From: a virus
Lineage: Duplodnaviria; Heunggongvirae; Uroviricota; Caudoviricetes
DNA: 57,277 nt
Strand: one strand, 5' to 3'
Virus record (IMG/VR): IMGVR_UViG_2721755643_000007
This document shows, one piece after another, positions 18,814 to 49,731 of this stretch (positions within the stretch are counted from its first letter, which is position 1; each line of letters opens with the position of its first letter). Position numbers and translations under genes: made by a program. The notes below the pieces were generated by a model. It saw only the letters and a program-made list of their open reading frames with translations. It was not told where the DNA came from and did not search any database.

Positions 18814-19567
18814 TCTTCTCCTCCTCTGTTGATTGTCGCAGTCCGGATTCAAATGCCGCAGCCGCCCAGGCGGGCGGTTTAAGACCGGCTGCACGGCGCT
18901 CCATCGTTTCACGGACCTGCTGGGCAAAAATTTCCTGATAGTCGTCACCGCGTTTCGCGCACTCTTTCTCGTAGGTGCTCAGTCCGGCTTCTATCAGCAT
19001 CACCGCTTCCTGAACTTCTTTCAGACCATCGATGGCCATACGACCGGAGCCTATCCAGTCGCAGTTCCCCCAGGCACTGCGGGCTTCCTGAAAGCTGAAG
19101 CGCGCTTTTGAAGGTAACGTCACCACGCGGCGAACGATGGCCTCTTCAAGCCAGCACAGAAACATCTGGCTCGCCTGACGGGATGCGACGAATTTTCGCC
19201 GCCCCATAAAGTACGCCCACGACTCGTTCGCACTGGCCCGTGCCGTGGAGTAGCTCATCTGGGCGTAATTCCGGGAAAGCTGCTCATACGAGACACCCAG
19301 CCCGGCAGCGATATACCGCAACAGTGACTGCTCAAACACGGAGTAGCCGTTATCCGTATCCTGAGCCGTCTGCAGGTTCAGTGAGTCCCCCGGCATCAGG
19401 TGCGGCACTTTTGCGCCTCCCAGACGGACCGGTGCTGCGGCGTAATACGCGGCAATTTCACCAATCCAGCCCGTCAGCCTTTCCCGCTGCTCCTGACTGT
19501 TCGCGCCCAGAATAAAATCCATCGCTGACTGCGTATCCAGCTCACTTTCAATGGTGGCGGCATACAT
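18794..19567 (-). pseudogene. B: portal protein B, C-terminal fragment (gene split by the island insertion)
   Basis: 257 aa MYAATIESELDTQSAMDFILGANSQEQ...EEEKSDSRAA matches the C-terminal part of lambda gpB; begins exactly at the insertion junction. Confidence 0.9.
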
Positions 19568-19645
19568 CGCCTTTATGAAAAGACAGGAAAAAATAAAATT
19601 TAAAAACAGTACATTACGAATGCTCAGACCTATCGTTTAAAGGAG

Positions 19646-19670
19646 TCGCAATACACACTGCAATACACGA
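19646..19670. repeat. direct repeats GCAATACAC(A) near the island left end, candidate integrase arm-type sites
   Basis: CGCAATACACA and CTGCAATACACGA in tandem; same motif occurs three times at the right end. Confidence 0.5.
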
Positions 19671-20675: not shown

Positions 20676-21230
20676 TTACTTATCTTTATTCGGCTGCAAC
20701 TTATCCGGTACGTTTCCGGCAGTTTCCATCAGATAATCGGACAGCATCAGCGGTATGTTTTCGTCAAGTTTTGCGCATGCGTTACAGGCTCTGATAACTT
20801 CTTTTTTCAGTCCATCCAGCATAGACGGCTTCATGTCGGGAAACTTCCTTGTCATGGCAAGCGGCAGGCTGTCCATGATTGAAGAAATCTGACTCGCCAA
20901 TTTTGAAAGCACGTATATACAAAACGCTGTATCAATAACGTCGCCGCGTTCGCGCTCGTTTTTAAGCTCCTGCGCCTCTGCCTGTGCTGTCAGCAATCTG
21001 ATCCTGACTCGTAGGAGTTCATCATCATCAATCTCGCCTTTGTCGTCTGTAATCTGGTTAATTGCATTGCTAACCCGATTGTCTATTACGCTGGCAACAT
21101 CATAAAACGCCTCGCGGCCTTTACGTTCAACGGGAGTCACTCCCCACTTGTCGAACGCTGTCGCACTTACACGGCAGCTTTGCGCCATGTTTTTTTTGTT
21201 CATCAGGTGCGATTTCATCAATATCCCCAC
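20676..21230 (-). CDS. terminase small subunit paralog (lambda Nu1-like) encoded by the island
   Basis: C-terminal two thirds align to helper Nu1 (RLLTAQAEAQELKNERERGDVIDTAFCIYVLSKLASQISSIMDSLPL versus [47 protein letters not shown]); adjacent to the island cos; true start may be the internal MNKK. Confidence 0.8.
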   Translation of the reverse strand: MGILMKSHLMNKKNMAQSCRVSATAFDKWGVTPVERKGREAFYDVASVIDNRVSNAINQITDDKGEIDDDELLRVRIRLLTAQAEAQELKNERERGDVIDTAFCIYVLSKLASQISSIMDSLPLAMTRKFPDMKPSMLDGLKKEVIRACNACAKLDENIPLMLSDYLMETAGNVPDKLQPNKDK

Positions 21231-21329
21231 TTAAGTAATGTTTCAGGTTGGTGTATTGGCTTTATCTTTTCCTTTTTATTCATAGAGATAGAGCGAACAA
21301 CAAAACCACCACCAGCACCCGAAAAAGGC

Positions 21330-21394
21330 TCATAAATAGCGAAAACCCGCGAGGTCGCCGCCCCGTAGCCTACCGGATCGCCGGAAAGGACCCG
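21330..21394. other. island cos site: cosN and cosQ-side sequence shared with helper cos, cosB side divergent
   Basis: 65 bp block nearly identical to 34091-34154 (3 mismatches); contains AGGTCGCCGCCC at 21352-21363, the reverse complement of the lambda cohesive end GGGCGGCGACCT; flanks diverge toward the TerS gene. Confidence 0.8.
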
Positions 21395-21419
21395 CCAGCC
21401 AGAACGGGCCCTAATTTCA

Positions 21420-21803
21420 TCAACCAATCAACTTATAGCGACCATCCCGTGCATTGCGACGTACACGCTCAATCTTGAGGCATAGCGCCGCATCTGGCTT
21501 TTTTGGGACAGGTACGCGGCAATATTCAGAAGATCGAGGAATATTGTTTATCCAGTCGATCACTTCACTTAAATACCAGGCCTTACGCCCTTCCGTAACC
21601 TGTACGCGTTCGGGGAACTCTCCGCGAGCCTCAAGGTTTAGCAATGTGCGACGGCTAAGGGTAGTAAGTTCCATCACCTGATTCATATCAACAAGGCGTT
21701 CACTTAAACGCATTTTGTCAGCAATAGCCTTTAATTCCTCTACTGCTGGATCCGGATACATCATTTCGGCAATTGGCTTAAGGTCATTGTAATGATTCTG
21801 CAT
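21420..21803 (-). CDS. AlpA-family HTH DNA-binding protein (second copy in the island)
   Basis: 127 aa with MELTTLSRRTLLNLEARGEFPERVQVTEGRKAWYLSEVIDWINN resembling AlpA-type motifs. Confidence 0.6.
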   Translation of the reverse strand: MQNHYNDLKPIAEMMYPDPAVEELKAIADKMRLSERLVDMNQVMELTTLSRRTLLNLEARGEFPERVQVTEGRKAWYLSEVIDWINNIPRSSEYCRVPVPKKPDAALCLKIERVRRNARDGRYKLIG

Positions 21804-21814
21804 TGTATCCCCCT

Positions 21815-22156
21815 TTACACACGAGCCAGCGGCTGAACAGAAATACCTGAGCCAACAAACGCGGCAACCTTTGCCGACAGTTCTTTTACAGACTCAGGCC
21901 AGTTCAGAGCATCAACATTTAAAACACCTGTCTTATAAACCTGTGCCTGTGTTTTTTTCACTGTGTCGATTTGTACAGCGGAAACATAAACCGCTTTACC
22001 TACGCTCGAACCATCCCATACCACCAGTGCACCTGTTGCATCTTCCTGCATCAGTGGCGTAAATGCAGGAATTACCCCTTTATTAGCTGAAAATATCCCC
22101 AGCGTAGTCACCAGTGCTTCAGTGCCAGCCATGAGTTCAGTGTAATGAGTAGCCAT
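21815..22156 (-). CDS. capsid decoration protein paralog (gpD-like) encoded by the island
   Basis: 113 aa; shares spaced motifs with helper D (TPLM.D, LV.WDG, YK.G, WPE, AF.G..IS) at low identity. Confidence 0.7.
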   Translation of the reverse strand: MATHYTELMAGTEALVTTLGIFSANKGVIPAFTPLMQEDATGALVVWDGSSVGKAVYVSAVQIDTVKKTQAQVYKTGVLNVDALNWPESVKELSAKVAAFVGSGISVQPLARV

Positions 22157-22165
22157 TGCTCCCCC

Positions 22166-23212
22166 TTAGCCAATGCGAACGGTAACAAAACGATTGATGC
22201 GGGCCGGTATTGGCTGTGGTGCTGAATGTGTCTGCACATATTCAATAGCCGGATCACCAGGCACAATATAGTTTTTCGGTGCAAGTTCGGCTTTAGTCAG
22301 CCCCATTCGGATTAGCTCCGGATCCTGAATACCGCCATAGGCGACAATCCCCTGAAGAGCCGTATTGCCAAGCACCATCAAATCAGGATCAAGGAAATGT
22401 TTTTCTGTTCCGTCCTCGTCGGTATAACGCCCGCTGTAAACAACAATCGCAACATCGCCCATATACCCTTTAAAACTCACCGAATCACCAAGGTCTTTAA
22501 GGGCCGTTTCCAGTTCGGAATTAGAACCACGACGGGTATCCAAAGCCTCTTTTATCGCTCTGAATGAACGGTATTTCTTCCATACATTACCACCCATAAT
22601 GATGATATTAGTGACGCCCTCACTAAATTCTGCGTAGCTCTCAATATCATCATTTGGATCAAAAGTTTCTTTATCCTTACCTGACCACTCAGTACCGCCA
22701 GACTGAGTGATGATATTTTGTGGTTTTATATTCCAGTCCAGCTCATAACGTTCAATACCATCGCCCTCAATGATATTTTTCCCCGTTGTGATTGCCTGAA
22801 CAGCAAGCCATTCAATACGTGCACGAATAGCTTTAGCCTGATTTACAATCGCCTGTTTAACTTTAATATTACGCGCCCCAAAAGCATTGTATTGCTCAGG
22901 TGACACACCAGCAGGGCGCACAGCTAACTTATTTGGATCAATGCTGCTTTTCGGCTTCATATAACCTGGACGAATTGTTTTTGATTCGTATCCCTCATCT
23001 CGTGAAACTTTACTGCCCACCATAGGAGAGCAAAACGCCGCGATCGGGATATTTGGATCGTCGATCGTATCAAGAATAATGTCTCTCGATTCAAACATTA
23101 CCGAGCGAGTGAAAAACAAACTGGTAAACAACGCATTTAATTTTTTTTGCACATCTTCAGCATTAGCCACCTGCACAAGCTGTGTAGGCGAATATAAATC
23201 AACCATACTCAT
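22166..23212 (-). CDS. major capsid protein paralog (gpE-like) encoded by the island
   Basis: Start MSMVDLYS; shares ITQSGGTEWS, DTRRGS.SELETA.KDLG and AIVVYSG with helper gpE; rough by-eye identity 35-40%. Confidence 0.85.
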   Translation of the reverse strand: MSMVDLYSPTQLVQVANAEDVQKKLNALFTSLFFTRSVMFESRDIILDTIDDPNIPIAAFCSPMVGSKVSRDEGYESKTIRPGYMKPKSSIDPNKLAVRPAGVSPEQYNAFGARNIKVKQAIVNQAKAIRARIEWLAVQAITTGKNIIEGDGIERYELDWNIKPQNIITQSGGTEWSGKDKETFDPNDDIESYAEFSEGVTNIIIMGGNVWKKYRSFRAIKEALDTRRGSNSELETALKDLGDSVSFKGYMGDVAIVVYSGRYTDEDGTEKHFLDPDLMVLGNTALQGIVAYGGIQDPELIRMGLTKAELAPKNYIVPGDPAIEYVQTHSAPQPIPARINRFVTVRIG

Positions 23213-23423
23213 CCTCTTTACATTCATTACAAATAATTGTGAATATATTCTATTACCGATGTCTGCTATGCGAATACATGCAACCAAGTGCAATGTTGTA
23301 TAAAATATGCCGTAACAACTTCAGTGCTGATAATTCGTGTTAATGTATTTACTTCCTTTGGTCGGGATTTATGTAGCATGCCGGAAAATCTATTTTTTTC
23401 CGGCATCTTTTTGTTTGCAGAAT

Positions 23424-24441: not shown

Positions 24442-26196
24442 TTATAAAAACGCGTCGCAATCGTCTGTTGTAATTGCGTTGGTCTGCGTTACTCCCTTAA
24501 CTTTTCGCGTAATATATTCATGCCCGTAAACTTTCGCCGCTGGCTTCATGGCCTTGCTGAACTCAGCCACGTTTAGCGGTTTGCTCCTGCCCGCGTATGC
24601 CATAAACGCCAGATAGACGCGGTAAAGGCTGTTCCTGGTCGTGTACTTCACTGAATCACCACCGCCACCCATCATCAGGCCGCGCGCTTCCTCCAGAAAA
24701 TTCAGGAACTGGCAAAACTCAATAACCGGATCCGTCTGTTGCTTTATTGCCAGTGCTTCATCACCGTCACGCTGTTCCAGTAGTAAAGCCCGTGCCTTCT
24801 CAGGGTCGGTAAAGTTCGCCAGCAATCGGCGGATAATAACGGGGATTTCAGCCGCAATCTTTTCCGGTAGCTCCCTGTCTTTTTCGGCCTCACTGACGAT
24901 ATTGTCGAAACGGAAAATCACGCGACGACGTGCCACACCTCCGGCCCGTTCGGTGAATATCATCGGGTTGTTGTTGGTCGCCAGCACCACCGCCCTGATT
25001 ACCGCCGTGAAACGCTTTTCATATTTCGGGTTAATTTCCACGGGGTCGCCGCCTGTGATTTTCTTGATGCCCGTTCCTTCGCCTGTATATTTCGGCTGGT
25101 CAGCCAGGACGATAAGACGACTCCCGACAACCTGCGCACGTCCACCAGCATCATCAAGCGATGTCATTTCAGCGCTTACCGTGTTCTGTTTCCCTGCCAG
25201 AAGGCTGGCTATGTGTGTGAATGTACTTTTACCGCTCCCGCCGTCTCCGGTGGCCTCAATAAACATCTGCCAGTCGTACCGATTCGCCATAATCATGTAC
25301 AGCGCGGCACATATACGCATCATCTTGCGCGGGTCTTTTCCGGCTGCGTGCTCAAGCCATTTATGAAAGTTTGGCGCGTTATCGCGGATGTTCTCCCCTG
25401 GTGCTGGTGGCGTGTACTCAATGCCGTTGTGCGTGGTGATCCAGTTCTCCGGCGTGTGCGGGGAAAATTCCCCCGTTTTCAGGTCAAGCGCACCATTGGC
25501 GAACGGCAGCAAATCGCCAGACGGCTCGCCCATTGGTTCGGCAATAACTTTTAACGCTTCCACGGCGTTATTGATTACGCGCTTGCTGAAAGTGGCCCTG
25601 TGCTCTGAATAGATCGCCACCATTTCGCGGCTAAGTTCCATTGTGCTGACCGGACACCATACCCCGCCGCGCCATACGTGAACGATTTCACTTTCAGGAT
25701 GTACGCAAACGCCATCAAAGCGATCGGCAAGCAACTGCGCGCGCTCACTGTCCGCCATCTGCGAAAGTTGCGCCTTTTGCTTTACCGGAAGCTCAATGAC
25801 CAGACCATCAGAAAGATTCTGGCGTTCACGGGCCAGATATTCGCGCCAGTTCTGCACCTCCTGGCCGTGCATACCCTCAGGATAAAAATTTGCATCCTGT
25901 ACGCCTGCTGCCGCCAGCTTCTGACCAATCGCCTTTATCATTACAGGCGCAAGATATCCGGCCCTGTATATGCGTGCTGATTTTCGGCCTTCCGGCACAA
26001 TTTGCAGATTATCCAGTTCGGATAGCTGCTGCTCCCCAAGCCACACAGGAGGCTCATTATCTCCGGCCATACGCGCATCATGTTCCTGCCATTGTTTCGC
26101 GTGTGCCCAGGCATCACTACCCGCAAAAATAATGACTTCTGTTCCTTTGTGTTTTATGCCGCGTGACTGCTGTTTTACGTTCGGTGCCAGTTTCAT
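24442..26196 (-). CDS. primase-helicase (D5 / P4 alpha-like NTPase with Walker A)
   Basis: 584 aa; Walker A GDGGSGKST; size and domain order typical of satellite and plasmid primase-helicases. Confidence 0.8.
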   Translation of the reverse strand: MKLAPNVKQQSRGIKHKGTEVIIFAGSDAWAHAKQWQEHDARMAGDNEPPVWLGEQQLSELDNLQIVPEGRKSARIYRAGYLAPVMIKAIGQKLAAAGVQDANFYPEGMHGQEVQNWREYLARERQNLSDGLVIELPVKQKAQLSQMADSERAQLLADRFDGVCVHPESEIVHVWRGGVWCPVSTMELSREMVAIYSEHRATFSKRVINNAVEALKVIAEPMGEPSGDLLPFANGALDLKTGEFSPHTPENWITTHNGIEYTPPAPGENIRDNAPNFHKWLEHAAGKDPRKMMRICAALYMIMANRYDWQMFIEATGDGGSGKSTFTHIASLLAGKQNTVSAEMTSLDDAGGRAQVVGSRLIVLADQPKYTGEGTGIKKITGGDPVEINPKYEKRFTAVIRAVVLATNNNPMIFTERAGGVARRRVIFRFDNIVSEAEKDRELPEKIAAEIPVIIRRLLANFTDPEKARALLLEQRDGDEALAIKQQTDPVIEFCQFLNFLEEARGLMMGGGGDSVKYTTRNSLYRVYLAFMAYAGRSKPLNVAEFSKAMKPAAKVYGHEYITRKVKGVTQTNAITTDDCDAFL

Positions 26197-26731: not shown

Positions 26732-26923
26732 TTAATCCCCCACCAGCTTACTTTCTTCCTCAATCAAAAAACTAGCGACACTTCCCGAAAGACGCGCCAG
26801 TAGGCTCGCCAGTGCGGATATATCAGCATCTGTAATTTTGTTCGGGTATACCTCAAGAAGGCGGCAAATAATTTCTGTCTGGTGCGCACGTTCAGCGGCT
26901 TCGTGTAATGTAATTTCCTGCAT
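26732..26923 (-). CDS. hypothetical protein (63 aa)
   Basis: Small ORF, abutting its neighbours. Confidence 0.4.
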   Translation of the reverse strand: MQEITLHEAAERAHQTEIICRLLEVYPNKITDADISALASLLARLSGSVASFLIEEESKLVGD

Positions 26924-27108
26924 TAATGCACCTCTTTTAATTCATACACTGCTGAAATAATGACTTGTGATAAGCCATATTCTGATGATTCGCTTCTCAC
27001 CGCAGCAATAGCCGTCTGAACATTAACAGCCTTCACATTCTGAGCGATACCAATTGTGTGGCCTATTGGGTTAACAGCTCGGGCAAATACACGGAAGGTT
27101 TTAAGCAT
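26923..27108 (-). CDS. hypothetical protein (61 aa)
   Basis: First gene of the leftward small-ORF operon, facing the divergent control region. Confidence 0.4.
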   Translation of the reverse strand: MLKTFRVFARAVNPIGHTIGIAQNVKAVNVQTAIAAVRSESSEYGLSQVIISAVYELKEVH

Positions 27109-27389
27109 GACTCACTCCCTGGCGGATTTTTGCAGCGAATACAGCAACACAACCGGACGGGCAACGGCTACGCGCTTCGCGTTCCGTCCAGGCGGTTACG
27201 TGGATGATTTGAGATTCTCCGGCACTCAGTGCCAGAAAACGCCACACAAAGGCCGTTTGTGTGTGTACAAGGTGTGGTATATGATTTACAGCAACCATAA
27301 CGGCTCCTAGTTTACGTTGTTGGTTAGACGCCCCGTATGTGTTCCCAGCACTGCGGGGCGTTGCTCTTTGTATTTCAACAATCCTTTCG

Positions 27390-27468
27390 GTGTGTTTCAT
27401 GTTATGAGCGCATGAAACACACGTCAAGGCTTTTTGTATTTCTTTTTTTGTGTATACTGAAACACACC
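27390..27468. promoter_or_regulatory. candidate operator/promoter: 12-bp perfect inverted repeat plus an extra half-site overlapping a -10-like TATACT
   Basis: GTGTGTTTCATG-(9 nt)-CATGAAACACAC at 27390-27422; half-site TGAAACACACC at 27458-27468; TATACT at 27453-27458; AGGAG before the ATG at 27489. Confidence 0.5.
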
Positions 27469-27488
27469 GATGATTAGGAGTTTCAGAA

Positions 27489-27794
27489 ATGGCAACGGCT
27501 AACAAAAACGCAAAATCACAACTGACAACTGTCAGAGTCCCACTAGATGTTATGCAAGGGATGGAATCCGTTAAGCTGGACGGTGAAAGCAATGCCGGAT
27601 TTATCGTAACCGCCATGCGCGGAGAAATAGCCCGCCGCCAAGCAGAAGGCAGCGGAGAAAATCCCCTTGTGTCGTCACTGGATGCCCTGGCTAAGGTCGA
27701 ACAAATCGGCATCAAAGCAGCCGAGGAGATCGGGCAACTCGTCACCGTCGCGCGTGAAGAACTCCAGCGACGCAAGGTCAAAGAGCATGAATAG
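27489..27794 (+). CDS. putative ribbon-helix-helix DNA-binding regulator (candidate island repressor)
   Basis: 101 aa; N-terminal TTVRVPLDVMQGMESV fits the RHH beta-strand/helix pattern; transcribed opposite to the replication operon. Confidence 0.5.
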   Translation: MATANKNAKSQLTTVRVPLDVMQGMESVKLDGESNAGFIVTAMRGEIARRQAEGSGENPLVSSLDALAKVEQIGIKAAEEIGQLVTVAREELQRRKVKEHE

Positions 27795-27851
27795 CCAATA
27801 TCAGCGCCATAGTTTGAGGAACGCAGGCGCATTGCTTTACAGGACAGCACC

Positions 27852-28031
27852 ATGAGCGACACAGAATCAACCAAAACACCATCACCAACTCGTAAGAGAC
27901 GACGCAAAAATATAGCGCATGAACATGAATCAGAAAGATTCGCACCTTGTTCGTTTGCTCTTGAGAAATTCCTTAAAGAGCACAGGAAAAAGCTCTCGTT
28001 GCAAACCTTGGAACGAACCAAATCTGACTGA
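27852..28031 (+). CDS. small hypothetical protein (59 aa)
   Basis: ORF MSDTESTKTPSPTRKRRRKNIAHEHE... co-oriented with the RHH gene; below the ORF-track length cutoff. Confidence 0.3.
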   Translation: MSDTESTKTPSPTRKRRRKNIAHEHESERFAPCSFALEKFLKEHRKKLSLQTLERTKSD

Positions 28032-28127
28032 TCACATTGCCCACCAGCCGCAAATGTGGCATTGTTGGTGATGCTTTTGTTTTCCCTTGTTTCCACTGGC
28101 GACCCTTTTGCGGTCGCCTTTGTTTTG

Positions 28128-28706
28128 TCACTGAATGCGGTTACCAAAGTAAAACTCAGGCTGATATTCACGTATCAGCGTTTTTTCTTCTTCCTCCAGC
28201 TCACGCTTTTTGCGCTTACATGCCTGTAGCTCCCTCCCCTTCTCGCTGGCACTTATTTGATATTGCTCTTTACGGCGGGAAAAATCCTGTAATGCACCCC
28301 ACGGGATACCATAAGTCCCCGTTTTTCTGATACCTGGTATCACATTTCTGAATACCCAGTTACTGAAACGATGAGCAAATGTGCCAGGCGTCGTTGCTTT
28401 GCGGCTGCGGGCTATTAGTTTGTAGAAACCTGACTCAGAGATAATTCTCATATTCTGATTTCCTCCTGGGGTGTAAGTTAAATTTACTCCCTTTTCATCA
28501 TCATCAAGCATCTGCAACGCCGTACGCGAATTGGTTAGTTCCAGCGCAGCACAAACATCTTTTGCAACAAACCACGGATCGCCGTTCAGATACACCACAC
28601 GAACGTTCACACTATCAAAGCGCAGAACGACGAGATCACGAATATCGCAGAATTTTTTCACTGGACGAGCGTACCCCTTGCCCGTCACGGCAATATTTTT
28701 ATTCAT
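28128..28706 (-). CDS. Bro-N domain protein (antirepressor-like)
   Basis: 192 aa; N-terminal FDSVNVRVVYLNGDPWFVAKDVCAALEL typical of Bro-N. Confidence 0.75.
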   Translation of the reverse strand: MNKNIAVTGKGYARPVKKFCDIRDLVVLRFDSVNVRVVYLNGDPWFVAKDVCAALELTNSRTALQMLDDDEKGVNLTYTPGGNQNMRIISESGFYKLIARSRKATTPGTFAHRFSNWVFRNVIPGIRKTGTYGIPWGALQDFSRRKEQYQISASEKGRELQACKRKKRELEEEEKTLIREYQPEFYFGNRIQ

Positions 28707-28762
28707 CGCGTTTTTACCTTATAGACAAAAAACCCCTCGTGATGAGGGGCATTATTTACTGG

Positions 28763-29020
28763 TTATTGCTGTTTTGTTTTTCCAGGTTTCCATCCAGGAT
28801 GCCACTCACCACGGATCCATGCCTGAACCTCTGAAAGTCGATACCCTGCAGCACGTTCACCGATCTTGATACGTCGCGGGAATTTACCTGCCTGCTCCAT
28901 TTTCCAGCGTGTTGAGTTTGCCAGCGTGGTAAGTGCTATGCACTCTTTTTCACGAATGAACCGATCAATGTCCTTCATTGTGCGCAAATCGTTTTCATCA
29001 ACAAGAGAATAAATTGTCAT
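28763..29020 (-). CDS. AlpA-family transcriptional regulator / excisionase-like protein
   Basis: 85 aa; CIALTTLANSTRWKMEQAGKFPRRIKIGERAAGYRLSEVQAWI matches the AlpA pattern; immediately downstream of int. Confidence 0.8.
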   Translation of the reverse strand: MTIYSLVDENDLRTMKDIDRFIREKECIALTTLANSTRWKMEQAGKFPRRIKIGERAAGYRLSEVQAWIRGEWHPGWKPGKTKQQ

Positions 29021-29021
29021 A

Positions 29022-30263
29022 TCACACCACCTCTTTATTAAGCTCGATAACGTTGTTGTTAAATCCTGCTATCGTATTAAGGTAATTAACCCACATATTA
29101 AGCACCTCAAGTTTTTTCTTTATATGCCTGCTTTTATTGTAAACACCAGCAACCCCTTTCACTTTATGACCTAAAAGAAGTTCGACAATATAAGGATCCG
29201 CCCCCATATCATTAAGCGTAGTGGAAAATGTGCGCCTGAAATCATGTATGCACCACAAGCCATTAGTATCATGACCAAGACGCCTGCATATTCTGTTTGC
29301 AGCCCCTGTTATTGTCGCCCTTTGCAAAGCACAACCGACAACATAACCGCGATTTTTTGTTTCTGCGTAAAGATTAACGATCCATTGTTTTATTCCGTCA
29401 GGAACAGGCCTTACTATAGCCTCCTTGTTTTTGCTGTGCTCTTTTGGGACTGTCCATACCCAGTTTTTTAAATCCCATTCGTCCCAGGTGGATAGCCTCG
29501 CCTCCTGCTGTCGGCAACCAAACACCAGGCAGATAACCATTATTCTTCGGTTATATATTGATGACAGAGTTAGCAAATTATTACCGTAAGCATAAGACCA
29601 TACATCAGCGGTTTCATTGATATTAAGAACGCGATCCCTTATACCGGATGAGCGCCCGACATAACTTACGTTAATATCTCCAAAGGGATCGCACGCGATG
29701 TATTGCCTGACGCGACAAAAACGCAACGCCTGTTTGATATCAAGAAAAATTGCACCAGACATAACAGGCGCATTTTTTTTGATCCTGTCAAAGACGGTAA
29801 GCCATGTGTGTAATTTGCACTGTTCTATAGCCATATCACCGATATAGGGGAAGATATGCTTTTCAAATCGTTTTATTAAATATTCATGCTCTTTTCTGGC
29901 TGTTGTGGCGTGATTGTCGTACCAGTAAAACAGCGCATCCCTTACGGTCACTGGTTGCATAGTTTTTTCGGCAGCAAGTTTTATTTGCCTGCGGGGGTCC
30001 AGATTTTCAGCCAGCCATTCACGGCACTGATCACGCATGCGCCTGGCCGTTGCAAGAGACATGTCAGGATAGCGACCAAGTGTAAGCCATACCGGAGGGG
30101 ATTCCCTGCCACCAAGACGATAGTAAAAAACAAAGCTGATCCCCCCAACCATGCTTACACGCACAGACAACCCGCGCCCATCCGCTATTGTTTTTTGTTT
30201 GTCCTGCCGTTTTCCGACAAGACTCTTTAACAGTTTGTCACTGAGTTTGTTTTCAATAGCCAT
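29022..30263 (-). CDS. tyrosine integrase (P4-type, with N-terminal arm-binding domain)
   Basis: 413 aa; N-terminal DGRGLSVRV / YRLGG / LGRYPDMSLATAR motifs; C-terminal HDFRRTF ... LLGH ... VYNKS. Confidence 0.9.
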   Translation of the reverse strand: MAIENKLSDKLLKSLVGKRQDKQKTIADGRGLSVRVSMVGGISFVFYYRLGGRESPPVWLTLGRYPDMSLATARRMRDQCREWLAENLDPRRQIKLAAEKTMQPVTVRDALFYWYDNHATTARKEHEYLIKRFEKHIFPYIGDMAIEQCKLHTWLTVFDRIKKNAPVMSGAIFLDIKQALRFCRVRQYIACDPFGDINVSYVGRSSGIRDRVLNINETADVWSYAYGNNLLTLSSIYNRRIMVICLVFGCRQQEARLSTWDEWDLKNWVWTVPKEHSKNKEAIVRPVPDGIKQWIVNLYAETKNRGYVVGCALQRATITGAANRICRRLGHDTNGLWCIHDFRRTFSTTLNDMGADPYIVELLLGHKVKGVAGVYNKSRHIKKKLEVLNMWVNYLNTIAGFNNNVIELNKEVV

Positions 30264-30281: not shown

Positions 30282-30335
30282 TTGCAATACACACCCATCC
30301 CGATCGCCAATTTGCAATACACATTGCAATACACA
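30282..30335. repeat. three direct copies of TTGCAATACACA between int and the right junction, candidate arm-type sites
   Basis: Copies at 30282-30293, 30312-30323 and 30324-30335; same motif as at 19646-19670. Confidence 0.5.
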
Positions 30336-30411: not shown

Positions 30412-33392
<2,981 letters not shown>

Positions 33393-35376: not shown

Positions 35377-35898
35377 TCAGCACGCGATATCGAGAGTCAA
35401 CTGCAGTTGCTCGCGCCAGTACTCAACATTTGCTTCAATAACCGGCTTATCCCATCGCCAGCGAGCCATCTCTCTTGCCCCATTGCTGGCTTTTGATTTC
35501 CGGTCATCGCGAATGCGACATGCTTGCTCATATTTCTGCTGCTCAGTCAGTTCACCGCGAAGCAGACTATCAATGTGCAGGTCGCACCACACAGCAAAAC
35601 GAGCATCACACCAACGGGCAAATGCAACTGAAAGTTTTGGATGTAGCCACGTACCACCACCCCTGTCCTTTCGTGCCTTGCTGGTTTTTACATACCTCGA
35701 TTGTGAGGGATGTAAAATTTGAGATTCTTTCCCGGTCAACGCTTCGTCTAAAGCACGAACGTATTCAAGCGTTTCTGCCAAACGCATCCAGTTATCAATG
35801 CGTTTCCCAAATCTCTCAGCAACACCTGTGACGTTGATCCAACCATCAGTGTTGAAACTGACAATTTCACCTTTGTAATTAAGTGGCACGATATTCAT
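35377..35898 (-). CDS. putative KilA-N / antirepressor-like domain protein
   Basis: 173 aa; N-terminal region resembles KilA-N domains; assignment tentative. Confidence 0.4.
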   Translation of the reverse strand: MNIVPLNYKGEIVSFNTDGWINVTGVAERFGKRIDNWMRLAETLEYVRALDEALTGKESQILHPSQSRYVKTSKARKDRGGGTWLHPKLSVAFARWCDARFAVWCDLHIDSLLRGELTEQQKYEQACRIRDDRKSKASNGAREMARWRWDKPVIEANVEYWREQLQLTLDIAC

Positions 35899-37837: not shown

Positions 37838-38920
37838 ATGAAAAAATTAACAGTGGCAATTTCTGCTGTAGCTGCATCAGTACTGATGGCGATGTCTGCT
37901 CAGGCAGCTGAAATTTATAATAAAGACAGTAACAAGCTGGATCTGTACGGGAAAGTTAATGCTAAGCACTACTTCTCCTCTAATGATGCAGATGATGGTG
38001 ATACTACTTATGCCCGTCTTGGCTTCAAAGGTGAAACCCAAATCAACGATCAACTGACTGGTTTCGGTCAGTGGGAATATGAATTCAAAGGCAACCGCGC
38101 TGAATCTCAAGGTTCCTCCAAAGACAAAACCCGTCTTGCATTTGCAGGCCTGAAATTCGGTGACTACGGCTCAATCGATTACGGCCGTAACTACGGTGTA
38201 GCATACGACATCGGTGCGTGGACTGACGTTCTGCCAGAATTCGGTGGCGATACCTGGACCCAAACAGATGTATTCATGACTGGTCGCACCACAGGTGTTG
38301 CAACTTATCGTAACAACGACTTCTTTGGTCTGGTTGATGGCCTGAACTTTGCAGCTCAGTATCAGGGCAAAAATGACCGAAATGAAGTAACTGAAGCTAA
38401 TGGCGATGGTTTCGGTTTCTCAACTACTTATGAGTATGAAGGATTCGGCGTGGGTGCAACCTATGCTAAATCTGATCGCACTAATAATCAGGTTATCTAC
38501 GGTAACAACGGTCTGAATGCTTCTGGTCAAAATGCTGAAGTATGGGCAGCTGGTCTGAAATATGATGCGAACAACATCTATCTGGCCACCACCTATTCTG
38601 AAACCCAGAACATGACTGTTTTTGGTAATAACCATATTGCCAACAAAGCACAAAACTTCGAAGCTGTTGCACAATATCAGTTCGACTTCGGCCTGCGTCC
38701 ATCCGTTGCTTACCTGCATTCTAAAGGAAAAGACTTGGGTGTTTGGGGTGATCAGGACCTGGTTGAATATGTTGATGTAGGTGCAACCTATTACTTCAAC
38801 AAAAATATGTCCACTTTTGTTGACTACAAAATCAACCTGATTGATAAGAGCGATTTCACGAAAGCATCTGGCGTTGCTACCGATGATATCGTTGCTGTAG
38901 GTATGGTTTACCAGTTCTAA
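37838..38920 (+). CDS. nmpC: outer membrane porin (NmpC/Lc family, lysogenic conversion)
   Basis: 360 aa with signal peptide; OmpC-family sequence ending VAVGMVYQF; sits between Q and the lysis genes in opposite orientation as in DLP12. Confidence 0.85.
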
Positions 38921-39108: not shown

Positions 39109-39492
39109 TTAATTAGAGTTATTAACAACGATATCCATCTCTAACCGGATATCTAATGCCATTAACATCCCTTCAATTATACCCTCAGCCTTCTGTAACC
39201 TTTTCCCGATATAACCATCAGAGCAGCAATGCTTACCTGCCAGTGACATGAATGTCATACCGACTACATAATAATCTACTAATAAATCGTGCAAATCGCT
39301 GTTGTTCTTTTTCAGACGGGCCATGCACCCGCAAATGATCATCGCGTCATCGTCACAACATTGCGGGCGAGATTTTACTTTTGAAGGAATTAATCCCTTA
39401 AAACCGGCGGCAATGGACGACCAGGTCACATCTTCATGATTATTAGCCGCCCACGCTCCCCAACGCTCAAGAACCATCTGAATATCACGCAT
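39109..39492 (-). CDS. Q: late-gene antiterminator Q (82/21 type)
   Basis: [33 protein letters not shown] matches recalled DLP12 quuD-type Q; ORF track extends 5 codons upstream. Confidence 0.85.
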
Positions 39493-42131: not shown

Positions 42132-42455
42132 TTATTGAAACAGATTCTGAGGTAAATGCGGCAATACTTGACTCCACTTATCATCCTGCCACGGCTGAAG
42201 TTTTACATGTGCCGTTTCTCGGGCGAGGATTGCTCGCGCTCTGTTGAGTCTCTGGGGATATTCTTGCTCGATGGAAGTGAAGTGACCAGCCTCACCATGC
42301 TCCGCATCCTGAAGAAGATGAGTAACGTTCTGGTAGGCAATTAACATCACATTCCCTGCTCGCCATAACCAGGCGAGTGTGCAAAGTTCGTTATCAGTGA
42401 ATTGTTTTGTGATTGGGAATTGTTGAACTGCTAGAACGGGAACGCCAGCATCCAT
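42132..42455 (-). CDS. hypothetical protein (107 aa)
   Basis: ORF between the HNH gene and the serine recombinase; 10-bp stem-loop CTTCCGTCAT..ATGACGGAAG just downstream. Confidence 0.4.
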   Translation of the reverse strand: MDAGVPVLAVQQFPITKQFTDNELCTLAWLWRAGNVMLIAYQNVTHLLQDAEHGEAGHFTSIEQEYPQRLNRARAILARETAHVKLQPWQDDKWSQVLPHLPQNLFQ

Positions 42456-49041: not shown

Positions 49042-49731
49042 ATGAAAACAACACTCTCAGAAAGACTTAAAGAAGCCAGATTAGCGCGAGGCCTTACACA
49101 AAAGGCGCTTGGGGATTTGGTCGGGGTTAGCCAGGCTGCTATTCAGAAAATCGAAACAGGGAAAGCTAATCAAACAACTAAAATCGTGGAGATCGCGAAC
49201 GCTTTGGGTGTGCGCGCAGAATGGTTATCTTCTGGCGTTGGAAATATGTCAGACAGTACAGTGCAACCAATACAATCAACTGTCAGCCATTCCAAATACT
49301 TCAAGATTGACGTTCTTGATATAGAAGTCAGTGCTGGGCCGGGAGTCATCAACCGTGAGTTTGTAGAAGTTCTACGCTCGGTTGAGTACTCGTTTGACGA
49401 TGCTCGTCACATGTTCGATGGTAGGAAGGCGGAAAATATCCGCATCATTAACGTGCGTGGTGACAGCATGTCAGGAACGATCGAACCAGGTGATCTGCTG
49501 TTCGTTGATATCACAGTTAAATCTTTCGACGGTGATGGTATCTATGCGTTTCTGTACGACGACACAGCCCATGTAAAGCGCCTGCAAATGATGAAGGATA
49601 AGCTGCTGGTCATCTCTGATAACAAAAGCTACTCACCGTGGGACCCGATCGAGAAAGACGAGATGAACCGGGTGTTCATCTTCGGTAAGGTTATTGGGAG
49701 CATGCCGCAGACATATAGGAAGCATGGGTAG
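49042..49731 (+). CDS. cI: CI-type repressor (HTH plus S24 LexA-like peptidase domain)
   Basis: Start MKTTLSERLKEARLARGLTQKALGDLVGVSQAAIQKIE; C-terminal GDSM ... K catalytic-dyad region; ORF track extends 22 codons upstream. Confidence 0.85.
   Translation: MKTTLSERLKEARLARGLTQKALGDLVGVSQAAIQKIETGKANQTTKIVEIANALGVRAEWLSSGVGNMSDSTVQPIQSTVSHSKYFKIDVLDIEVSAGPGVINREFVEVLRSVEYSFDDARHMFDGRKAENIRIINVRGDSMSGTIEPGDLLFVDITVKSFDGDGIYAFLYDDTAHVKRLQMMKDKLLVISDNKSYSPWDPIEKDEMNRVFIFGKVIGSMPQTYRKHG

Follow-up and report, generated by a model that had tools for sequence, protein, structure and literature searches.

A Bro-N gene behind a conserved terminator in a helper-embedded satellite: a possible late-expressed regulator

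What a Bro-N gene does in a satellite that lives inside its own helper is the question raised by bro, a gene of the 57,277-nucleotide stretch of Caudoviricetes DNA analysed here (the window; IMG/VR virus record IMGVR_UViG_2721755643_000007). Judged by its sequence, the element that carries bro is a helper-embedded phage-inducible chromosomal island (PICI, or HE-PICI for the embedded form) at the lambda B (portal) cognate. The initial annotation had suggested that the Bro protein senses or triggers derepression of the helper prophage and binds its CI repressor. We tentatively favour a different reading, in which Bro is a satellite-specific, late-expressed, nucleic-acid-binding regulator whose transcription a conserved terminator would gate, with the helper antiterminator Q as the most likely means of opening it. 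Such a protein would regulate satellite and/or helper gene expression or replication and would not itself set off the induction of the helper.

The bro gene and its protein family

The exact open reading frame (ORF) was recovered at 28128-28706 on the minus strand, with the coordinates of the initial annotation, an ATG start at 28706 and a product of 192 amino acids (aa). The Bro-N assignment was also confirmed, as the Pfam model PF02498 matched aa 34-124 over model positions 1-96 of 96 with E=4.9e-20 and 72.4 bits (gathering score 25.6 bits). The identical protein in RefSeq is WP_001038675.1, 'BRO-N domain-containing protein', and the PHROG 2593 'anti-repressor' profile hit the protein with E=3.8e-85. 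No second Pfam domain was found at E<=0.01, KilAC/ANT and P22_AR being absent, and the NCBIfam and PADLOC defence models gave zero matches. The antirepressor label of bro is a result of annotation transfer. The parts of the gene are as follows (dN and dS, nonsynonymous and synonymous substitution rates):

28128-28706, minus strand: bro, Bro-N protein, stop codon at 28128-28130 (ORF, Pfam, PHROG, RefSeq, dN/dS)
28717-28720, minus strand: Shine-Dalgarno AAGG of bro, 10 nt 5' of the ATG; GAGG in other alleles
28335-28607, minus strand: Bro-N domain, aa 34-124; predicted fold aa 25-129 (beta-sheet and helices)
28431-28550, minus strand: variable central cassette, aa 53-92; allele types A, B/B' and C (allele comparison; dS saturated between types)
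28131-28304, minus strand: conserved charged C-terminal tail, aa 135-192; helices predicted at 136-155 and 160-181 (dN/dS, AlphaFold2, homologues)

The AlphaFold2 model of Bro, built on a 56-sequence alignment from a second homologue search, had a predicted local distance difference test score (pLDDT) of 71 overall and 80-89 in the domain. An earlier run on a shallow alignment of 85-96% identical sequences produced a pLDDT of 42 and was set aside. In the model, aa 25-129 formed a beta-sheet with helices and were followed by the two tail helices. A PDB sequence search with Bro showed no solved relative, and the nearest solved folds to the model were DNA-binding domains. As modelled, the Bro-N domain is an alpha/beta, winged, KilA-N/APSES-like fold of the DNA-binding type, and the helical tail may mediate oligomerisation or partner contact.

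Comparison of six intact alleles (85-95% nucleotide identity) showed pairwise dN/dS values of 0.10-0.26, with dS up to 0.58. The most constrained part was codons 93-192, with dN/dS of 0.05-0.15. By these ratios bro is not a chance ORF and is under purifying selection. The cassette occurred in at least three old types (A, B/B' and C) between near-invariant flanks, with dN/dS of 0.14-0.42 and saturated dS between types, which points to cassette exchange by recombination with no detectable positive selection. Positive selection on the cassette was considered and found unsupported, as dS was saturated and dN/dS remained below 0.45. Types A and C of the cassette both occurred in islands at the portal site whose int and alpA were the same. 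Broken copies were also found: a frameshift in GZEC065, an IS100 insertion in tcmA_3, and a 105-nt remnant in EcCICFT073 and approximately 115 other E. coli genomes.

A match to bro was present in 297 of 5426 complete E. coli genomes and was near full-length in 182. Among 16 E. coli loci with a full-length or near-full-length bro, 14 were HE-PICIs in portal or terminase genes, and the remaining two had an HE-PICI backbone (int, alpA, primase) beside chromosomal genes. The constant int-alpA-bro block was backed by three different replication modules in E. coli. For sequenced phages, the best matches covered Bro-N only (aa ~25-133) at no more than 60% identity, and at least 80% of Bro was covered in only four records, all of Paenibacillus phages, at 38-40% identity. 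Outside E. coli, the profile search produced many proteins of 190-200 aa with domain and tail at 55-73% identity, from Proteus, Providencia, Morganella, Klebsiella, Enterobacter, Citrobacter, Yersinia, Edwardsiella, Plesiomonas and Aeromonas. Gene context was sampled in three of these genera (Proteus, Aeromonas and Enterobacter), and there the homologues belonged to chromosomal satellites of the order int-alpA-orf-bro-Ash-...-primase. The E. coli loci, these satellite contexts and the domain-only phage matches together indicate that the short Bro-N plus tail protein is a satellite-specific family, as read from gene context in E. coli and the three other genera. In loci L011-L015 an ORF of 131-144 aa which overlaps or abuts alpA precedes the bro homologue. 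In the Proteus and Aeromonas members of this set, the gene directly 3' of the homologue belongs to the Ash family (P4 Eta-like).

Transcription of bro and the helper repressor

The placement of bro inside an island, and of the island inside its helper, held as the initial annotation had described it. The portal gene of a lambdoid prophage is split by 10,898 bp between two 8-bp cores, ATCGCCTT, with bro between them, and in silico deletion of these 10,898 bp restored an intact 533-aa portal ORF. Integrase, alpA and bro lie on the minus strand, so that key island genes run in the direction of the helper late operon. The features relevant to bro transcription are:

28722-28750, minus strand: intrinsic terminator GCCCCTC-ATCAC-GAGGGGT followed by TTTTTTGTCT, between the alpA stop and the bro start
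28098-28128, plus strand: intrinsic terminator GGCGACC..GGTCGCC followed by TTTGTTTTGT, which ends the convergent YlcI/YnfO transcript just before bro
30464-30471, no strand: att core ATCGCCTT, int-proximal junction with the 5' half of the portal gene
19566-19573, no strand: att core ATCGCCTT, distal junction with the 3' half of the portal gene
30472-31293, minus strand: 5' half of the helper portal gene, putative entry of helper late transcription into the island
39109-39492, minus strand: helper Q-type antiterminator (quuD-like, as the identical region is annotated in RefSeq), co-oriented with the late operon and the island and upstream of both

The alpA-bro terminator consists of a hairpin plus T6 with a predicted energy of -12.7 kcal/mol. 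Its position was kept in 7/7 alleles compared, 3' of three different alpA types, and its stem showed a compensatory change (CCCCTC/GAGGGG against CCCCGC/GCGGGG). The 26 nt between the terminator and the ATG held no promoter-like site. Since the terminator lies directly 5' of bro and the gene has no promoter of its own, bro is expected to be transcribed by read-through. The island also showed no LexA box. On these results, neither SOS/LexA control nor immunity control that would put bro expression ahead of derepression was found.

Terminator-resistant late transcription by Q-modified polymerase is established lambda biology. As the island is embedded in the helper late operon and co-oriented with it, with Q upstream, Q-modified late transcription of the helper is the most plausible source of bro expression, in line with the proposal of Tommasini et al. 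that helper late transcription runs on into HE-PICIs (PMC10111431). A Q-modified polymerase that started at the helper late promoter would transcribe terminase, W and the portal gene's 5' half, go on directly into the island and pass the terminator into bro. Under Q-dependent expression Bro would be made after helper derepression, not before it, and would act in the lytic phase.

The proposed action on the helper repressor was compared with the repressor itself and with related prophages:

49042-49731, plus strand: helper CI repressor, HTH_3 and Peptidase_S24 (Pfam)

S24-type repressors are a class inactivated by RecA-stimulated self-cleavage, and the helper CI with its Peptidase_S24 domain is therefore presumably SOS-cleavable without help. 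The helper CI of O157:H7 H6437 was 99% identical to that of the window, but the HE-PICI there has cassette B and the window cassette A. The HE-PICI of O121 FWSEC0006 shares the cassette of the window, and its prophage repressor is unrelated, a 154-aa Rac-type protein without S24. The same CI with different cassettes, and the same cassette with an unrelated repressor, indicate that variation in the cassette does not follow the repressor of the helper, in a small sample in which some host prophages may no longer be working helpers.

Sequence homology of Bro to an experimentally characterised antirepressor was not found among P22 Ant, P4 epsilon and PY54 AntA. P22 Ant was rejected as a homologue (BLASTP E=2.9) and has P22_AR_N and P22_AR_C domains instead. 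P4 epsilon belongs to PF25738 ('Derepression'), to which Bro had no match, and PY54 AntA, at 87 aa, is too short for a Bro-N domain. P4 Eta was rejected as a Phage_ASH protein rather than a Bro-N protein. The only supportive experiment found for the antirepressor idea is that with ZX5 ORF4, whose Bro-N domain is 54% identical to that of Bro: its overexpression lowered lysogeny and repressor transcription and pushed the phage to lysis (PMC9782041). Overall, the sequence tests did not support the suggestion that Bro senses or triggers helper derepression by binding CI; that suggestion is weakened, not refuted.

The switch region and the competing explanations

Past bro lie two plus-strand genes that converge on it, one of the YlcI/YnfO family and one a small ORF, and then a replication operon which reads in the other direction:

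27489-27794, plus strand: gene of the YlcI/YnfO family, running towards bro and away from the icd-like operon; candidate island immunity repressor
27301-27488, no strand: switch region with promoter-like TTGACG-17-TAACAT (minus strand, 27427->27399) and three GTGTGTTTCA repeats
27101-27298, minus strand: icd-like gene (NCBIfam), first of the replication operon that reaches the primase

The three GTGTGTTTCA repeats overlap the promoter-like site before the icd-like/primase operon, and one pair of them makes up a perfect palindrome of 12 bp. Across eight related islands the repeats kept their position, and their sequence changed with the N-terminal residues of the YlcI/YnfO protein and not with the Bro allele. 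The YlcI/YnfO protein, which by its sequence reads like a ribbon-helix-helix repressor, a reading that Pfam and PDB did not support, is a candidate for the master repressor of Gram-negative PICIs, a kind of repressor whose existence in these elements has been called unclear in the literature. A search for an immunity RNA of the C4/CI/isrK type gave no Rfam match at gathering score in the window, and at E<=10 only two chance snoRNA matches in 26800-29100. An ORF of 356 aa is open at 27101-28171 on the minus strand, opposite the YlcI/YnfO gene and the other, small ORF of the plus strand, with its end inside the icd-like gene. EcCICFT073 also has a related open frame, and in strain PEC240 PGAP treats part of the stretch as a frameshifted Icd-like pseudogene. 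This antisense ORF may be left over from a duplication of the icd-like region, or it may be an artefact that reflects conservation of the strand opposite.

Several results count against a late DNA-binding regulator. The DNA-binding property is derived from fold similarity and literature prediction, and no DNA target of Bro emerged from the comparisons made. The Bro cassette did not covary with the operators of the island early promoter, which followed the YlcI/YnfO allele, and no cassette-specific 10-mer was found from -1.9 kb to +4 kb of bro in 12 islands, so a DNA site of the cassette, if any, would lie outside the int-to-primase part of the island. Read-through of the terminator from the alpA promoter could be substantial. 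The bro homologues in satellites of other genera are preceded by the overlapping ORF without a terminator, and terminator gating is thus not universal. The ZX5 ORF4 effect, by analogy, would fit an anti-immunity activity. Finally, the model PICI EcCICFT073 is inducible by AlpA, and lambda and phi80 transfer it (PMC6092414); the loss or breakage of bro in some functional or sampled islands indicates that the gene is dispensable for basic transfer. Overall, bro is kept by selection yet dispensable, and the induction and transfer of EcCICFT073 with a mere remnant are consistent with this.

That Bro is an antirepressor which binds the helper CI and triggers or reinforces helper induction is considered unlikely. 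The name 'anti-repressor' in PHROG and the source annotations, the ZX5 ORF4 experiment and the ability of satellites to derepress their helpers, as with P4 epsilon, speak for it. On the other side stand the lack of similarity to P22 Ant or P4 epsilon and of a KilAC/ANT or P22_AR domain, the upstream terminator with no promoter of its own, the island without a LexA box, the S24 domain of CI and the cassettes of H6437 and FWSEC0006. In addition, an HE-PICI can integrate only into a resident prophage, so that inducing this prophage on arrival would be self-defeating, and EcCICFT073 is induced by lambda and phi80 with a bro remnant only. An anti-immunity action on another repressor, either the YlcI/YnfO-type protein of the island or the repressors of other resident prophages, has a somewhat better chance, though still a low one. 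Directed at YlcI/YnfO, Bro would link late transcription of the helper to the release of the satellite replication operon from repression. A classic divergent switch is present in the island, with operator repeats that covary with the YlcI/YnfO allele, and the first gene upstream of this switch to be expressed by terminator-resistant transcription would be bro. The order alpA, Bro-network gene, YlcI/YnfO and Icd recurs in other PICIs and cf-PICIs, AntA/AntB there standing for Bro (PMC13612085), and immunity modules of the P1/N15 type link icd with a Bro-N gene (N15 gp30). Against this, Bro alleles did not covary with YlcI/YnfO alleles (long or short forms, or different N-termini), AlpA alone suffices for full induction of EcCICFT073, which has no intact bro, the RNA search showed no C4/isrK-type immunity RNA, and the gp30 parallel depends on an AntB identity deduced for gp30 and on a protein whose function is reported as not elucidated.

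A more specific combination, to which we give little credence, makes helper Q antitermination the induction signal of the satellite: only Q-modified polymerase would pass the alpA-bro terminator, and Bro, as the first protein made, would neutralise the YlcI/YnfO repressor or open the replication operon. If true, this would be a repressor/anti-repressor switch in Gram-negative PICIs that has so far been missed. Rather improbable is a protein-targeting interference factor or Kil-like effector which acts on host or phage machinery, favouring satellite packaging or blocking competitors, without sequence-specific DNA binding. PICIs strongly interfere with helper reproduction and the responsible EcCICFT073 genes have not been identified (PMC6092414); the conserved tail could be a protein-binding module and the variable cassette could reflect an arms race. 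However, no PADLOC defence model matched, the cassette ratios with saturated dS speak of old alleles and not of detectable positive selection, and the nearest solved folds are DNA-binding domains. Least probable by far is a decaying passenger gene without current function. The remnants of the EcCICFT073 type, the GZEC065 frameshift and the tcmA_3 disruption would suit it, but it is contradicted by the selection analysis, above all in the tail, and by the length and architecture conserved from E. coli to Aeromonas and the conserved ribosome-binding site and upstream terminator. The late-expressed regulator, which would be made once the helper is derepressed, is the reading that we tentatively retain. 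In Gram-negative PICIs only AlpA is known to be required, and neither a helper-encoded inducer nor a satellite repressor has been identified. Were the Bro proteins of PICIs to have a defined role, this gap in the account of how Gram-negative satellites sense their helper's state would be filled.

The island, its helper and related systems

The remaining genes of the island follow the zone order integration, Bro, replication and late, with a P4-type integrase, AlpA and primase present:

29022-30263, minus strand: satellite integrase, P4-type (Arm-DNA-bind_3 and Phage_integrase; Pfam)
28763-29020, minus strand: alpA, Phage_AlpA regulator/excisionase (Pfam)
24442-26196: primase, D5-type, end of the replication operon

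Past the icd-like gene come small ORFs, the D5-type primase, single-stranded DNA-binding protein, major capsid, decoration, a second AlpA-like protein and small terminase. Genes for a major capsid (375 aa), head decoration and a small terminase lie in the island itself at 20676-23293, in addition to those of the helper; such 'late zone' genes have been proposed to be captured from helpers by HE-PICIs. The second AlpA-family gene (127 aa, 21420-21803) lies in this late zone between the decoration and small terminase genes. An otherwise identical island in E. coli RMDEC364 (L001 6835-11197) carries two ISEc60 copies in the primase gene, and this satellite copy is probably immobile. Genes of the Bro network are also present in the helper: one at 35377-35898, close to the lysis genes, encodes a KilA-N protein of 173 aa, and one at 42132-42455 in the nin region encodes a P22_AR_C fragment of 107 aa. 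A porin gene (37838-38920, RefSeq ompC), a moron as in DLP12-type prophages, stands between the Q gene of the helper and the lysis genes, in the opposite orientation.

Doubled GCAATACA motifs were found at 19648/19660, which is 82 and 94 bp from the core at 19566-19573, and at 30314/30326, which is 138-150 bp from the core at 30464-30471, with a single copy at 30284. Tommasini et al. (2023) described doubled TGTATTGC at 81+/-2 and 132+/-2 bp from the attP centre (PMC10111431), and this doubled HE-PICI signature was present here on both sides of the attP core.

Compared with other Bro-N proteins, Bro shares its N-terminal domain and differs in what follows. In the Ant/AriS-like proteins (Listeria phi10403S AriS, L. 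innocua Lin2418) the N-terminal Bro-N, AntA/B or pRha domains are interchangeable and the C-terminus is ANT/KilAC, which is absent in Bro and replaced by the short helical tail; the SOS-inhibiting activity of the Listeria AriS-like proteins resides in the KilAC domain (PMC9043618). ZX5 ORF4 and the 'anti-repressors' of epsilon15-like phages and Kapi1 have Bro-N domains 54-55% identical over aa 24-132, but their C-terminal halves are unrelated to that of Bro and they are encoded in phage immunity regions, not in satellites. The immA operon protein gp30/gp27 of N15/phiKO2 has a Bro-N domain 45% identical (E=2e-28) and is icd-linked like bro. N15 gp30 has 264 aa against the 192 aa of Bro, another C-terminus and another gene order, with icd upstream; from its gene order and size gp30 is probably AntB, the function of which is reported as not elucidated (PMC4488713, PMC10612081). 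In the P1 immI/N15 immA/P4 module the order is C4-type RNA, icd, ant, whereas the icd-like gene here lies downstream of bro past the convergent gene and has its own promoter, with no C4-type RNA detected.

Among satellites, P4 epsilon and Eta/Kil share with Bro the early-operon place between a Vis/AlpA-type gene and primase, and neither is homologous to it. P4 epsilon is the model satellite antirepressor, annotated as 'helper derepression protein' in the P4 record. P4 Eta has its parallel in the Ash gene after bro in satellites of other genera, and there is none in this island. CapR of the Vibrio PLE (short for an element like the phage-inducible chromosomal islands) is a satellite DNA-binding regulator from the same domain-swapping network and represses a helper late gene; it is a domesticated protein of the T5orf172 endonuclease type, not Bro-N, and Bro had no T5orf172/GIY-YIG Pfam hit. 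CapR is thereby a precedent for a satellite regulator of this network that represses a helper gene (PMC10111431).

The closest known systems are the HE-PICIs of Tommasini, Mageeney and Williams (2023), who described these elements and a 'Bro zone' right after int-alpA, general to Gram-negative PICIs, together with its domain swapping, and left its function open (PMC10111431). The likeness extends to the lambda B (portal) site, the int-alpA-Bro-replication-late order, the doubled TGTATTGC arm motifs and a protein annotated in RefSeq, and there is no essential difference. The novelty is low because the element class and the Bro zone are published (PMC10111431) and the protein is annotated in RefSeq. 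To these systems the present analysis adds the internal cassette, the conserved gating terminator upstream of bro, covariation tests that argue against specificity for the helper CI, and the short Bro-N plus tail protein as a satellite-specific family under purifying selection.

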